Assembly (NCBI GenBank): GCA_951406725.2
Contig: OX597828.1
Span: 76,880,001 to 76,944,000, forward strand
Source: Octopus vulgaris
Taxonomy: Eukaryota
DNA length: 64,000 nt
Reading direction: 5' to 3'
Part shown: in pieces, positions 55,256 to 64,000 of the stretch
Layout of the letters: every line of letters starts with the position of its first letter
Position numbering within the stretch: position 1 is the first letter of the stretch
Position numbers and translations under genes: made by a program
The notes under the pieces: model-generated
The model's database searches: none
Seen by the model: the letters and a program-made list of their open reading frames with translations, nothing else
What the model was told of the DNA's origin: nothing

Positions 55256-55258
<3 letters not shown>

Positions 55259-56489
55259 AGATAAATAAAAATATATGCATACATACAAACATATATGTAC
55301 GTACCTACATCTACATGTATATATACATGCACATATAAATAATTATACGGGAGTACAGGACATCACAATAAGACGTAGAAACGGAAAAAGCCAAAAAACA
55401 AAAAACAAGAAAACGGAAAACGAAAAACAAGAAAACGAAAAACAAATACAGGACGAGCTACACAAGGACAAAACCCCCGTCATCAGCTGTCGCTAGAGGA
55501 GTCAGGCATGTTTCGAAGGCATAGACAGAACACTAATCCAATAGGCCTTCCTGCGAGAGAATTAAAATAAAATTCCAAGCAGCGGGGCAGAATGAATACG
55601 AACACAAACAAGACGTAACAATAAAACTGCAAAATTAAAATACATGTACAGAAACAAACACAAGAGGACGAACGAAAAAGCCTTTTTTCTGGCATAGACA
55701 AACGATAAAACTGCAAAAATAAAAATACATATACAAAAAATACAATTAGTTACAAAACGAGAAAATAAAAAGAATACGATACAGGAAATCAACCACACAG
55801 GGGGACGAACGAAAAAGCCTTTTGCTGGCGAAGACGAAAAGTGTTGTAGCAGCGCGTGGAGGCAGTCTTTTCAATAGTGAGAACCACGTGTAAAGGAATT
55901 TTATTTTATAGGCAAAGAAGAAGGAAGGAGGAGGGGGACACGCGGCGAAGAGAGAGGAGGAGTGGGAGGGAGAGAGATTGAAGAGGTTAAAGCAAAGGGA
56001 GAGAGTTCCGCATCTTAAATATAATAATATAAATATAAAAAAGGAACCAAGAAGTGGACCGAAACGACGAATCGGAACGAACCTGATGCGGGGCGCTGTC
56101 AGACATTAAGGAGATAAATAAAAATATATGCATACATACAAACATATATGTACGTACCTACATCTACATGTATATATACATGCATATATAAATAATTATA
56201 CGGGAGTACAGGACACCACAATAAGACGTAGAAACGGAAAAAACCAAAAAACAAAAAACAAGAAAACGGAAAACGAAAAACAAGAAAACGAAAAACAAAT
56301 ACAGGACGAGCTACACAAGGACAAAACCCCCGTCATCAGCTGTCGCTAGAGGAGTCAGGCATGTTTCGAAGGCATAGACAGAACACTAATCCAATAGGCC
56401 TTCCTGCGAGAGAATTAAAATAAAATTCCAAGCAGCGGGGCAGAATGAGTACGAACATAAACAAGACGTAACAATAAAACTGCAAAATT
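55256..56489 (-). mobile_element. Element with 381-bp direct terminal repeats (period 853), PLE pseudo-LTR-like
   Basis: 55256-55636 repeated at 56109-56489 with few substitutions; starts at a (TA)n tract; no ORF. Confidence 0.75.
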
Positions 56490-57274: not shown

Positions 57275-57311
<37 letters not shown>

Positions 57312-57360
57312 AAACAAGTAAAAAATAGAAAATGCTAAAATAATTTTATAGTGAACATTT

Positions 57361-57398
57361 CAGTACCGGTTTCGGTCATTTTGAGACCTTTTCAACTG
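57361..57398 (-). ncRNA. Hammerhead (U3-A8 variant), inverted copy
   Basis: Reverse complement of 62755-62792. Confidence 0.78.
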
Positions 57399-59188
57399 TA
57401 ACGATTAAATAATTAAATTTAGAAAAATTAGAAGAAAAGTTTTTTTAAAAGAATATTTCTATAGTAGTGTTCAGATTTAAGTGGCATTCTGCCTTTCTCT
57501 GACTCCCTTGTTTGCACTTGTGTGTTCGAGGTAGTTGTGAGTTCTTGGTAGGGTAGTAGAGGGAAGGCTGGTGAGGAAAGGGGGTGGGAGAATCTGGGAG
57601 TGCCCTGATGGTCGTATTTTGAATGGTCAGTGGCGGCTGGCAGTCTCAGTTCAATTCAGGATTGTTTATAGAATTAGCGTAGGTGTTATACTAAAAAACA
57701 TTAGTGACAAACTTAAGGGGTAGGGGGTGGAGAAGAAGAAGAAGAAGAAGAAGAAGAAGAAGAAGAAGAAGAAGAGAAGGAGAAGATGATGGTGATGGTG
57801 GTGATGATTATGACGACGATGATGATGATAACGATGATGATGAAGAAGAAGAAGAAGAAGAAGAAGAAGAAGAAGAAGAAGAAGAAGAAGAAGAAGAAGA
57901 AGAAGAAGAAGAAGAAGAAGAAGAAGAAGAAGAAGAAGAAGGAGAAGATGGTGGTGATGATGATGACGCCGATGATGATGATAACGATGATGATGAAGAA
58001 GAAGAAGAAGAAAAAAACAGAGAAGGGAGAATATGAATGGGTGTAAATATAGCTATGAAGGGGCTGATTAGTAATGGATTCTATGGAGTGTAGTATTTGT
58101 GTGTGTATATATATTTTTTTCTTTTATTCTAAAGTTGAGGTATATTAATTGTTTGTCGTAGACCCGTTAAGAAGTGGCTTGTATTTTGTAATAAAGAGAT
58201 TTTCTTTACTTATTCTTTGTCTCGAGGTTGTATCGTCCCTAAATTGGTAGAGGGGGAAAATTCTGAAGTTTGGTGTTTTTTTGTTGGCGCAAGTATCTAT
58301 GTGTTGGCTAAAAGCTATTTTTCTGTTTTGGGGAATTTTTATCTGGGATCTGTGCAGGGCCATTCGTTTACGCAAACCATTTTTTGTTTGGCCTATGTAC
58401 TGCTCTTGACACCCGGAGCAGGTTAGTGAGTATATTAGGTTCTCCGAAGCACATGTGAAGTTGCTTTTCACTGTAAACCGTTGTCCCTGTTTGAAGGAGA
58501 ACTCCGAACCCTCGATTAGATAGTCGCATATCCCGCAATTGGGTCTTCCACATTTTTTTACTGTCGGCTTCTGTGTTGAAGAGTGAATTCGGGCTTGTGT
58601 AAGGAGACTTTTCATGGATCTAGGCTGTCTTTTGCTTTTTATGATCGTGTGTGTTTGGAGGATTGTGTTCATTCTGTGGTCTTTTTTTAGGAGGGGTATG
58701 TTGTGGAGGATGGTGTCGAAGGCTTCGTTATTGAGAGGGTTGTGTGTGGAGATGTATGGTAAGGCTTTTGGTTGTAAGTTTTTCTTTGATTTGGGATGTC
58801 TCAGTTCCTTGATGTTAAGTTGAAGGGCACGTTGAATGCACTTGTCAATAAGTGAAGGTGGATAGTTCCTGGTGATTAGGGTATCTTTTAGTTCTTGTAG
58901 TCGTGTGTCTCTGGTGTTTGCGTTAGAGACTATAGTGCATATCCTTTTTGCTAGATTGAAGGGGATATTCATCCTGGTGTGTCTGGGGTGGCATGAATTG
59001 AATGGAAGATATTGCTTAGAGTCTGTAGGCTTATAGTATATGTCTGTTTCTATTATATTATTAGCTTTCTTAATGAGGATATCGAGGAAGGGGAGTTGTT
59101 GTTGGCTATATTCCATCGTGAATTGGATGTTTACGTCCAGTCCGTTTAAAATTTTCTGGAATTCTATGAGTTTTTCTATATTTGGTGT

Positions 59189-59725
59189 TTGGACTATGAA
59201 GCCGTCTTTCAAACAGAGCACGCCTCCAACAACCCTTTCCAGAAAATAAGAAAACCAAAACAACACCCAAACACCGATACACACCCGTCTAAAAATCGGA
59301 ACCTTCACTACTATCAAAAAAAGAATACAGGACCTAACCCCAACTCTGTAAGCAGCCAGCGATACAATATCAGGAATACCCCCACTTCAAGCAGAGAAAG
59401 GATAAATCAACACCCACAGCATAGACACTGCAACCTCATCCCCACCCAAAGGAGTTACCAACGAAATCTTCGTCCCATTAACCGGTTAAACAACCATGCA
59501 CAACAAACCCACACCACTTGCAATGATTACCAACGAAGGCCTCCTAGAACACCACACCCGAATATGGGATATCGGGATGCTCTCCTCAATACTGCTCCAA
59601 GAACACACACCACAAATCACAACAGGAGACCCCTAATCAACAAAGAACAACTATATACTAGCTACCGTCCCAACCACCGCATTCATTTTTTAGACCCAAT
59701 ACGCAAACACAGAGACACAAGATAG
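59189..59725 (+). CDS. Putative upstream ORF1 of the PLE (5'-truncated by the inversion); basic, N/R/P/T/H-rich
   Basis: 178 open codons from the inversion junction, overlapping the RT frame (open from 59662) by 64 nt; in-phase T TTT TTA at 59686-59692. Confidence 0.55.
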   Translation: MDYEAVFQTEHASNNPFQKIRKPKQHPNTDTHPSKNRNLHYYQKKNTGPNPNSVSSQRYNIRNTPTSSRERINQHPQHRHCNLIPTQRSYQRNLRPINRLNNHAQQTHTTCNDYQRRPPRTPHPNMGYRDALLNTAPRTHTTNHNRRPLINKEQLYTSYRPNHRIHFLDPIRKHRDTR

Positions 59726-59862
59726 CACCAAACAAGCAGGAGGAACCAAAAGTAATAAAAATTATTAATCTAACTCACAAGGAACTAACAGCAAACCAAA
59801 TAAACATACTTTCCAAAGGACTCAAGTTTACACCCACCCCACAACACCCCAACTACAATGAA

Positions 59863-62016
59863 ATGAAAGAAGACATCGCAGAATTCTGCAGAAAATTAAG
59901 ACTTACTGAGGAGCTATACGATAAATACAACGAGGACGAATCGTTAGCCAGAAATAGGAGTAACTACACCCCCTCGAAAGGTAAGAATAAAACACTTGAT
60001 GATTTCTGTGACCACATATCAAATTACCCATATCAACACATGCACAAACAAAAACACAAACCAAACTTCAGCAAAAAAGAATGGGCTGAGTTGAACAAAT
60101 TAAAACTAGATAAAACAATAACAATCAAAGAGGCCGATAAAGGGAGTGCTGTTGTCTTAATGGATACGACATTTTACATAACTTTGGTACTTTCTATGCT
60201 GGAAGACACAACATACTATGAAAAGGCACAAAACTACAGTCAACAAAAAATAATGAGGGAACTAAAATCCATATTAAACCCATACAAAGCAGGGCTCACC
60301 GACAAAGAATATGATTATATGACCAATTTCACAAGTAAAACTAGCCAATTCTACGGTATACCTAAGATCCACAAAAGTGAAAAAATAAGCAACGCATGCA
60401 AGATAGCTACAGACAAAATAATTAAAGTCCCTAATCCTAATGACCTCAAATTGAGACCCATAATAGCAGGTCCCGCATGCGAAACCCACCGCCTCAGTAA
60501 CTTTTTAGACACCCTGTTAAAACCACTCCTCAAACATGTCAAAAGCTATATAAGGGACGACTTAGATATGCTCAATCACCTACCGAATACTATAAACAAA
60601 AACACCATACTGGTATCCTTCGATGTAGTCAACCTCTACTCCAATATCCCCCACAACCTAGGACTAGAGGCAATCCAATTCTGGCTAGAGAATCACGCCA
60701 ACGAACTACCACACCGCATCAAAAAAGAATTTGTGATAGAAGGGGTTAAATTCATCCTGGAAAATAACTTCTTCGCCTTCAATGACAACTTCTACCGACA
60801 AAAATCGGGGACTGCGATGGGTACACGAATGGCCCCCTCCTTTGCCAACCTAGTCATAGGATACCTAGAGATCAGTCTGTATCGTAAGGTTCTAGAAAGA
60901 TATGGCAGTCCTTTCTCCATCTACATAGAAAACAACTGGAAGAGATATCTAGATGACTGTTTCATCCTTTGGCATAAAAATATAGAAAAACTCATAGAAT
61001 TCCAGAAAATTTTAAACGGACTGGACGTAAACATCCAATTCACGATGGAATATAGCCAACAACAACTCCCCTTCCTCGATATCCTCATTAAGAAAGCTAA
61101 TAATATAATAGAAACAGACATATACTATAAGCCTACAGACTCTAAGCAATATCTTCCATTCAATTCATGCCACCCCAGACACACCAGGATGAATATCCCC
61201 TTCAATCTAGCAAAAAGGATATGCACTATAGTCTCTAACGCAAACACCAGAGACACACGACTACAAGAACTAAAAGATACCCTAATCACCAGGAACTATC
61301 CACCTTCACTTATTGACAAGTGCATTCAACGTGCCCTTCAACTTAACATCAAGGAACTGAGACATCCCAAATCAAAGAAAAACTTACAACCAAAAGCCTT
61401 ACCATACATCTCCACACACAACCCTCTCAATAACGAAGCCTTCGACACCATCCTCCACAACATACCCCTCCTAAAAAAAGACCACAGAATGAACACAATC
61501 CTCCAAACACACACGATCATAAAAAGCAAAAGACAGCCTAGATCCATGAAAAGTCTCCTTACACAAGCCCGAATTCACTCTTCAACACAGAAGCCGACAG
61601 TAAAAAAATGTGGAAGACCCAATTGCGGGATATGCGACTATCTAATCGAGGGTTCGGAGTTCTCCTTCAAACAGGGACAACGGTTTACAGTGAAAAGCAA
61701 CTTCACATGTGCTTCGGAGAACCTAATATACTCACTAACCTGCTCCGGGTGTCAAGAGCAGTACATAGGCCAAACAAAAAATGGTTTGCGTAAACGAATG
61801 GCCCTGCACAGATCCCAGATAAAAATTCCCCAAAACAGAAAAATAGCTTTTAGCCAACACATAGATACTTGCGCCAACAAAAAAACACCAAACTTCAGAA
61901 TTTTCCCCCTCTACCAATTTAGGGACGATACAACCTCGAGACAAAGAATAAGTAAAGAAAATCTCTTTATTACAAAATACAAGCCACTTCTTAACGGGTC
62001 TACGACAAACAATTAA
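59863..62016 (+). CDS. PLE reverse transcriptase + GIY-YIG endonuclease
   Basis: ADKG, FYGIPKIHK, LRPIIA, SFDVVNLYSNI, GTAMGTRMAPSFANL, RYLDD, FLD, CGRPNCGIC linker, LIY..C..C...YIGQT. The frame is open from 59662 and has IINLT..ILSKGLKFTP upstream of the first ATG. Confidence 0.96.
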   Translation: MKEDIAEFCRKLRLTEELYDKYNEDESLARNRSNYTPSKGKNKTLDDFCDHISNYPYQHMHKQKHKPNFSKKEWAELNKLKLDKTITIKEADKGSAVVLMDTTFYITLVLSMLEDTTYYEKAQNYSQQKIMRELKSILNPYKAGLTDKEYDYMTNFTSKTSQFYGIPKIHKSEKISNACKIATDKIIKVPNPNDLKLRPIIAGPACETHRLSNFLDTLLKPLLKHVKSYIRDDLDMLNHLPNTINKNTILVSFDVVNLYSNIPHNLGLEAIQFWLENHANELPHRIKKEFVIEGVKFILENNFFAFNDNFYRQKSGTAMGTRMAPSFANLVIGYLEISLYRKVLERYGSPFSIYIENNWKRYLDDCFILWHKNIEKLIEFQKILNGLDVNIQFTMEYSQQQLPFLDILIKKANNIIETDIYYKPTDSKQYLPFNSCHPRHTRMNIPFNLAKRICTIVSNANTRDTRLQELKDTLITRNYPPSLIDKCIQRALQLNIKELRHPKSKKNLQPKALPYISTHNPLNNEAFDTILHNIPLLKKDHRMNTILQTHTIIKSKRQPRSMKSLLTQARIHSSTQKPTVKKCGRPNCGICDYLIEGSEFSFKQGQRFTVKSNFTCASENLIYSLTCSGCQEQYIGQTKNGLRKRMALHRSQIKIPQNRKIAFSQHIDTCANKKTPNFRIFPLYQFRDDTTSRQRISKENLFITKYKPLLNGSTTNN

Positions 62017-62754
62017 TATACCTCAACTTTAGAATAAAAGAAAAAAATATATATACACACACAAATACTACACTCCATAGAATCCATTACTAATCAGCCC
62101 CTTCATAGCTATATTTACACCCATTCATATTCTCCCTTCTCTGTTTTTTTCTTCTTCTTCTTCTTCATCATCATCGTTATCATCATCATCGGCGTCATCA
62201 TCATCACCACCATCTTCTCCTTCTCCTTCTTCTTCTTCTTCTTCTTCTTCTTCTTCTTCTTCTTCTTCTTCTTCTTCTTCTTCTTCTTCTTCTTCTTCTT
62301 CTTCTTCTTCATCATCATCGTTATCATCATCATCGTCGTCATAATCATCACCACCATCACCATCATCTTCTCCTTCTCCTTCTTCTTCTTCTTCTTCTTC
62401 TTCTTCTTCTTCTTCTTCTTCTCCACCCCCTACCCCTTAAGTTTGTCACTAATGTTTTTTAGTATAACACCTACGCTAATTCTATAAACAATCCTGAATT
62501 GAACTGAGACTGCCAGCCGCCACTGACCATTCAAAATACGACCATCAGGGCACTCCCAGATTCTCCCACCCCCTTTCCTCACCAGCCTTCCCTCTACTAC
62601 CCTACCAAGAACTCACAACTACCTCGAACACACAAGTGCAAACAAGGGAGTCAGAGAAAGGCAGAATGCCACTTAAATCTGAACACTACTATAGAAATAT
62701 TCTTTTAAAAAAACTTTTCTTCTAATTTTTCTAAATTTAATTATTTAATCGTTA

Positions 62755-62792
62755 CAGTTGAAAAGGTCTCAAAATGACCGAAACCGGTACTG
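62755..62792 (+). ncRNA. Type I hammerhead ribozyme, U3-A8 variant, in the PLE 3' end
   Basis: CAG-TTGAAAA-GGTC TCAAAAT GACC-GAAA-CCGG-TA-CTG. Confidence 0.8.
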
Positions 62793-62899
62793 AAATGTTC
62801 ACTATAAAATTATTTTAGCATTTTCTATTTTTTACTTGTTTTTTCATATATATCAACTCGTGTGTTCCTTTTCACCCTTATACATATATATATATATAT

Positions 62900-63149: not shown

Positions 63150-64000
63150 GATTGATTGATTCTAGTTTCAGCTTATGAGCTGTGGCCATGCTGGGGCACC
63201 GCCATTTGGTGTTGCTACTTGGTTTCACTTCATGTGAGGCTTTCTAGCAACTGCTATTTGGTGCATGAGAGAGTTCGATGCAGCTGCCCTCATCTGCCCC
63301 TCCTGCCGTGAAGTTGGTTCATCTGGGACACCTGACAGGAAGAGATCCAGCTCCATTTTAAAGACATCTGTATCCACCCCATGCAGGTCTCTCAGGTTCA
63401 TCGGGAGGATATTGAAGAGCTGTGGGCCTCGGAAGCCCAGGCTATCACAGAATCTTGTCCTACATCTTGATGGCAAGTTTGGAGTCCTAGGCACCACGCA
63501 GTGGCGCCCAGTTCTGGCATTTGCGTAACTCTCGATGCCAAAGTTCAGGACACTTCCCTCCAGGATCTTCCAGATGTATATTATGGCATATCTTTCCCGC
63601 CTACGCTCCAGGGAATATAATTTTAATCTCTTGAGTCTTTCCCAGTAGCTTACATTCTGCATAGAGGCTATCTTCTTCGTGTAGCTTCGTTGGATCGCCT
63701 CAAGTTCTGTGATCAACTTGACACTGGATGGTGACCATAGCTGAGAGCAATAGTCAAAGTGACTTAGGACAAGTGTCTTCCAGAGGACCATCATGGTTTC
63801 TTGTTCTCTTGTCCTAAAGGTTCTAAGAATCCATCCAGCCAGCCGTCTGCATTTCATTGTCAGTTTAGCAACATGTACATGAAAGGTCGCGTCATCACTC
63901 ATGTGAATACCCAGGTCACGCACTGATTGTGCCTCTGGGATTGCAATCCCTCCGGGTCCAGTGTATTCCTTGGGTATTGCATTCAGTTTTGCATGCTGAT
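63150..64000 (-). mobile_element. CR1-like LINE, 3' end (continues beyond the window)
   Basis: ORF 63225..63923 with RDLGI, HFDYCSQLWSP, LEAIQR, YSLERRRER; short 3' UTR with hairpin and (AATC)n tail. Confidence 0.9.

Follow-up and report, generated by a model that had tools for sequence, protein, structure and literature searches.

In HIV-1, gag-pol frameshifting takes place on a U UUU UUA heptamer with a stem-loop behind the slip site, and -1 signals in general depend, to our knowledge, on an RNA fold or a bound protein. Among Penelope-like elements (PLEs), the clade meant where a figure legend refers to a frameshift is one that we take to be Athena. In that legend (Fig. 1 of PMC8557442), a frameshift with a pseudoknot is given as a way in which ORF1 may be separated. 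In the literature, endonuclease-bearing (EN+) PLEs are called single-ORF elements (PMC8557442), PLEs are described as having either one ORF with an endonuclease (EN) or two ORFs without it (PMC6431247), and the single-ORF description of canonical EN+ PLEs recurs (PMC6515669); the first-pass annotation of the present DNA named the same convention. The excerpted text of PMC6515669, PMC3846280, and PMC5408684 contains nothing on a Neptune frameshift.

Here we describe a locus in a 64,000-nt stretch of Octopus vulgaris DNA (the window) where a two-gene element of Neptune type very probably programs a -1 frameshift at U UUU UUA, a reading drawn from comparison of sequences across families and organisms. 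Literature searches, whose coverage stopped short of the original Terminon description, returned no frameshifting Neptune ORF1 and no stop-spaced collision stimulator, and a two-ORF, frameshifting Neptune-type PLE with a structure-free, stop-spaced signal was not found described in the literature searched.

The element and its classification

The element in the window is a 5'-truncated copy of a young Neptune-type PLE (Table 1). The plus-strand copy starts at 59192, with the inverted 3' arm upstream of it, and the reading frame at 59150-59725 is not a whole gene: its stop at 59725 stands, but only the tail of ORF1 is present, the truncation having escaped the first-pass annotation. Other particulars of that annotation agree with the sequence and the ORF list, namely the heptamer T TTT TTA in X XXY YYZ phase (CAT at 59684-59686, TTT at 59687-59689, TTA at 59690-59692, then GAC) in an upstream frame ending at 59725, and a -1 frame that is open from 59662, carries the N-terminal IINL...KGLKFTP motif from 59761 (beginning IINLT), and has its first ATG at 59863 (codon 68). 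The Pfam matches of this reverse transcriptase (RT) frame are RVT_1 (E 3.5e-8) and GIY-YIG (E 3.8e-4, just below the cut-off). Elsewhere in the window, positions 63225-63998 on the minus strand hold a C-terminal RT fragment of an unrelated non-LTR retrotransposon (family judged by eye), and a 300-nt direct repeat occupies 55256-55555 and 56109-56408, its two copies being 99% identical and 853 nt apart.

Table 1. Features of the element in the window (positions are those of the window).
Feature	Position	Strand	Basis
Slippery heptamer U UUU UUA (T TTT TTA; Phe-Leu in the ORF1 frame)	59686..59692	+	Sequence, ORF list; in phase at 18/18 junctions
ORF1 stop TAG, 10 codons (30 nt) past the heptamer; candidate roadblock	59723..59725	+	
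30-nt A/C-rich spacer, open in the 0 and -1 frames, no predicted structure	59693..59722	+	
ORF1 3' part, about the last 177 of 411 codons; start lost via 5' truncation	59192..59725	+	
RT–Zn-finger linker–GIY-YIG frame, 784 codons	59662..62016	+	
3' UTR / pseudo-LTR, microsatellite-like tracts, (TA)n run at the end	62017..62880	+	
Hammerhead-like motif within the pseudo-LTR	62744..62808	+	Rfam HH9, 19.7 bits, below gathering score 52
Inverted partial copy: RT-EN 3' half and pseudo-LTR, head-to-head with the + copy	about 57289..59183	-	

Fuller copies were found elsewhere in the same genome (2.8 Gb, 227 contigs). For the 401-nt region around the junction, 40 of 691 candidates were scored, which gives at least 40 copies of about 100% identity, and a tandem array on one contig (C9) consists of 4433-nt head-to-tail units in which a pseudo-LTR, an ATG-started 411-aa ORF1, a 64-nt overlap, the RT-EN frame, and the 3' UTR follow one another. 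The whole 411-aa ORF1 was present in 7 of the 30 near-identical loci examined, and in full copies this helical ORF1 overlaps the RT–GIY-YIG frame, which lies in -1. The feature is a real, conserved part of an active element.

As in EN+ PLEs, a PLE-type RT is combined with a GIY-YIG endonuclease bearing a CCHH motif (Pfam, with the motif read directly and set beside Fig. S2 of PMC8557442 for a comparison by eye), and pseudo-LTRs occur both in tandem (the C9 units) and inverted (the window arm). The EN is C-terminal and the CX2-5CxxC linker is of full length, as in the Neptune rows of the same figure (by eye); the assignment to Neptune, a clade reported as paraphyletic (PMC8557442), rests on EN position and linker, the RT tree having been built without named Neptune reference sequences. 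The linker is shortened in Nematis and absent in Penelope/Poseidon, and the EN is N-terminal in Naiad (PMC8557442). The single ORF of canonical EN+ PLEs is not what was found, both the full copies and their relatives having two overlapping ORFs.

The pseudo-LTR contains, once per unit, an Rfam HH9 match that falls below the gathering score (19.7 bits, E 0.59). In this hammerhead-like motif, the core UUGAAAA replaces CUGAUGA and presumably resembles C3U/G8A variants; a literature search for such a variant found nothing.

Conservation of the slippery heptamer

Searches that used distant ORF1 proteins as queries, together with 20 fetched stretches, gave 110 loci in the octopus genome (duplicates included), among which six had no RT match nearby and five lacked T6A; the rest form eight families in which the junction retains the T-run and the ORF1 core shares 32-100% identity with the query. 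In other collections, nine of 98 loci matched the ORF1 profile, and one more (L156) was added from its tree position and heptamer. The resulting set of 18 junctions, eight octopus families and ten loci from other organisms, includes decayed copies (family F, L154, and L155 have stops in ORF1, and L154 and L155 are near-duplicates). At all 18 the heptamer is in phase, reading U UUU UUA in 14, U UUU UUG in three, and U UUU UUU in one, so that the proposed check on related families extends conservation of heptamer, phase, and -1 overlap far beyond the window copy. The 30-nt flanks of the heptamer in other organisms give only 4-15 gapless matches out of 30. Chance is a poor explanation for the in-phase heptamer, because in these 18 loci only 2 of the 5682 remaining ORF1 codon positions have T TTT TT in phase. 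A heptamer of the X XXY YYZ type, in phase within the overlap and conserved (18/18), is what a classical -1 signal has at its slip site.

The RT frame is laid out to match. It is open from the heptamer to IINL at every junction (18/18; 549 codons without a stop) and closes at a median of 4.5 codons upstream of the heptamer, and 16 of the 18 junctions have no AUG between the heptamer and the IINL motif. A further observation concerns the third frame, where the heptamer and the next base form UAG at 13 of 18 junctions (59691-59693 in the window), stopping +1 or -2 slips at once; this may explain the frequent G after the heptamer.

The signature is also visible in proteins. ORF1 has relatives in 592 clusters at 50% identity (E<=0.001), and FL lies within the last 45 aa in 76 of 96 relatives of at least 290 aa, against 14 of 192 control windows. 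F[LF] is absent from the last 50 aa in 15 of 95 ORF1 proteins, some of which look truncated. Near-invariant F400 and L401 in alignment A2 were not counted as evidence, since that alignment was drawn mostly from FL-bearing proteins.

In a quick RT tree (94 rows), the 14 rows that combine ORF1 with the slip site all fall in a single branch of 20 rows (SH-aLRT 97); the remaining six of the branch have too little upstream DNA, and L153, L154, and family F are outside the tree. Sister lineages with long upstream frames have a Met of their own and no such ORF1. Viral contigs searched with the RT alignment yielded no relatives. Seven entries (L227, P0202, P0247, P0251, P0253, P0255, and P0264) are animal retrotransposon genes found in genome bins of bacteria (one assigned to Bacteroidota; names of bivalve gill symbionts), most likely through host contamination, which hints that bivalves host the clade with ORF1 and slip site.

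Proposed frameshift and the ORF1 protein

Under the proposed frameshift, ribosomes would slip back one base on U UUU UUA near the end of ORF1 and produce an ORF1–RT–endonuclease fusion predicted at about 1175 aa (401 from ORF1 and 774 from the RT frame), whereas most would stop ten codons past the slip site and release ORF1 alone. Since EN+ PLEs are described as single-ORF elements, a widespread two-ORF clade with an unannotated ORF1 would mean that gene models and RT N-termini are commonly miscalled.

ORF1 itself has no Pfam match and no Gag or zinc-knuckle match, none of 77 members among its relatives (0/77) shares a Pfam family, and neither an Atlas cluster nor a solved structure (E<=0.001) was matched. 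Its structure model (pLDDT 70.4) has long helices up to residue 243 followed by a low-confidence tail, so that a long helical protein ending in a basic, disordered tail is predicted for ORF1, and the ORF1 product is probably an RNA-packaging partner made in excess over the enzyme. The suggestion of a gag-pol-like two-ORF strategy is therefore upheld in one half, the conserved heptamer and overlap favoring a two-ORF -1 strategy, and not in the other, the likeness to Gag finding no Pfam match in ORF1.

The ORF1 stop codon as candidate stimulator

A hairpin or pseudoknot 5-9 nt downstream, which classical -1 signals have, was not found. RNA 3' of the window heptamer is less structured than shuffled sequence (z +0.43 and +1.16), and a scan for H-type pseudoknots found none possible in 7 of 18 junctions, the window included, with a single junction (L147, 1/18) beating all 20 shuffles; the scan is a crude pair count, and its positive control, six A AAA AAC loci from another PLE clade, scored 26-35. 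The impression recorded at first sight, that no clear hairpin lies downstream, is confirmed by both measures.

What is conserved downstream is the position of the ORF1 stop, a feature that the first reading had passed over. Counting the Phe as codon 1 in the 80 of 95 ORF1 proteins with F[LF], no stop falls at codons 3-11, one at 12, 27 at 13, and six at 14, after which stops are scattered; the spike at codon 13 has a binomial P of about 1e-19, a value that ignores relatedness and possibly truncated ends. In DNA, the stop is at codon 13 in 8 of 18 junctions and earlier in none, the same frame inside the RT gene having 7.5% stops. The ten residues between FL and the stop share no sequence. When the A site of a trailing ribosome holds UUA and that of a leading one holds the stop, ten codons lie in between, and 10 codons is the smallest gap between colliding ribosomes, with disomes accumulating at stop codons (bioRxiv 10.1101/2023.02.01.526718).

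Because the ORF1 stop is spaced at the minimal gap of collided ribosomes, we tentatively favor a terminating ribosome on that stop as the stimulator of slippage by collision. A ribosome paused there would block the trailing one at the moment when UUU occupies the P site and UUA the A site of the latter, and the blocked ribosome on the slip site would take the place of the usual pseudoknot. Extended with the same reserve to the relatives, the proposal is that a whole animal clade, with hundreds of ORF1 families, may program a structure-free -1 frameshift with the terminating ribosome as roadblock. If true, this would be a natural case of collision-driven recoding in which the ratio of enzyme to ORF1 rises with ribosome load and slow termination; ribosome collisions, usually treated as faults, could then serve recoding through a signal made of a slip site and a precisely spaced stop. 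The cassette of roughly 50 nt, with its natural spacing variants, lends itself to a direct reporter test.

The stop cannot be indispensable in all cases, because codon 13 is not a stop in 10 of 18 DNA junctions and 53 of 80 proteins, among them the active families B (codon 14) and C (codon 23). A plausible though slightly less favored account competes with the collision step only: a bare U UUU UUA could slip without a stimulator, or with the help of slow decoding at UUA or of a trans-acting protein, and the place of the stop would be kept for some other reason, such as clearing the 0-frame ribosome or a minimal ORF1 tail. U6A alone gives measurable slippage, and the heptamer is retained in the ten junctions lacking the codon-13 stop. 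In SARS-CoV-2, moreover, a nearby 0-frame stop helps in another way, via pseudoknot refolding (PMC8168617). Such an account leaves unexplained why stops are absent from codons 3-11 and then peak at 13; the ten residues after FL share no sequence, and no fold is present to refold.

Three further patterns around the stop were examined. Later stops suggested a 10-codon periodicity (23, 33; 15 of 46 at an index of 3 or 4 modulo 10, P 0.03 post hoc), which was left unused because stops near 22-26 can arise from the RT codons for hydrophobic IINL. A protein constraint on the RT-frame residue over codon 13 was considered and rejected, the six junctions without a T-purine-purine codon having P, K, C, C, S, and S. 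The occurrence of UGG at codon 13 (4 of 18 DNA junctions, 4 of 52 proteins) is not significant.

Other conceivable routes into the RT frame

Termination-reinitiation or internal initiation, in which the RT restarts at a -1 codon overlapping the ORF1 stop and the U-run is a positioning signal 30 nt upstream, would dispense with slippage and is improbable overall. Families B and C, where reinitiation is possible, have AUG as the RT-frame codon over codon 13, and the window has AUA in good context; that codon encodes I, L, M, or V at 12 of 18 junctions. The eight junctions with a stop at codon 13, however, have AUA, CUA, or GUA and never AUG, codons of this kind being dictated by a stop in that position. 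In many RT models from databases the first residue is a Met 3-30 aa ahead of IINL, but gene callers write GTG and TTG starts as Met too. Restarting at the stop would need no open RT frame between the U-run and the restart, yet the frame is open there in 18 of 18.

A splice or trans-splice acceptor at TTTTTTAG joining an upstream exon to the RT frame, raised as a caveat in the first-pass annotation, is very unlikely. An AG directly follows the T-run at 13 of 18 junctions, and PLEs can carry introns (PMC8557442), but the other five junctions lack the AG and still keep the slippery heptamer, the residue after FL needs a codon not starting with G in 23 of 75 proteins, and an acceptor needs no phase-locking to ORF1. 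Contigs from all four runs guessed to be RNA (four studies) cross L007:1687-1693 gap-free, with no joint ending there, weak evidence in that they may be DNA; the sole joint that skips the junction site is in one low-depth contig and has GC..CG ends, far from the AG.

The T-run itself has six T in 98 of 100 copies of family A and seven in 2 of 100, among the matches listed (131 junction matches in the octopus genome); the two seven-T copies begin 317 and 88 nt upstream of the site, both without an ORF1 start. Six T are found in all 42 copies of family D and in 55 of 67 of family B, where ten copies have five T, one has three, one has a substitution, and none has seven. The five-T copies of family B (10/67) lie at scattered places and may be a propagated non-autonomous subfamily. 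ORF1 is absent from the 120 best RT relatives (0/120; longest 803 aa), and a weak search among longer proteins found no longer fused ORF1–RT form. Among 152 ORF1 relatives, one (P0130) continues into RT sequence within a single chain; it reads through FL, passes over IINL, and has no RT core, which suggests a stitched gene model or a deleted copy. The notion of one continuous ORF, with a homopolymer indel or assembly error in the window copy, can be set aside almost entirely: seven T would indeed fuse the frames in those 2 of 100 listed copies, but an assembly slip is ruled out because six T stand in the other 98 and the seven-T pair is 5'-truncated without an ORF1 start, six T prevails in three families, on independent contigs, and in other organisms, and none of the 120 best RT relatives is fused.

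Comparison with known systems

The Neptune EN+ PLEs (Arkhipova 2006, as described in PMC8557442) are single-ORF elements, whereas a separate 411-aa ORF1 here precedes RT-EN in another frame. The EN-deficient Athena/Terminon PLEs, if the legend cited above refers to them, are alike in arrangement, an upstream helical ORF1 being joined to the RT by a frameshift; on the same reading their frameshift has a pseudoknot, which is lacking here. They have no fused endonuclease where the present element has a fused GIY-YIG, and their 3' end is a telomeric repeat where the present one runs into (TA)n.

A second, classical -1 signal was noticed in a separate clade of PLE-like RTs among metagenome loci (L181:1193, L193:578, L195:1345, L202:1191, L205:1255, and L210:1297, 0-based positions), which have an in-phase A AAA AAC near the RT start. 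Their RT frame overlaps a long 0-frame ORF by 190-215 codons, and a pseudoknot or hairpin is predicted behind the A AAA AAC. The ORF1 of that clade was not matched by the ORF1 profile of the U UUU UU clade.

HIV-1 gag-pol has the same heptamer and the logic proposed here, an abundant upstream protein and a scarce enzyme fusion, but with a stem-loop, whereas the present element has no fold, no Gag match, no true LTR, and no protease. In bacteria, drug-induced ribosome queues at stop codons have been reported with frameshifted products (PMC7544508). In SARS-CoV-2, the stop, at a distance of five codons, is part of the pseudoknot and has been proposed to allow refolding of the RNA, lower ribosome load having a rescuing effect (PMC8168617); in the octopus element the stop is ten codons off, no fold is present, and lower load is predicted to reduce slippage.
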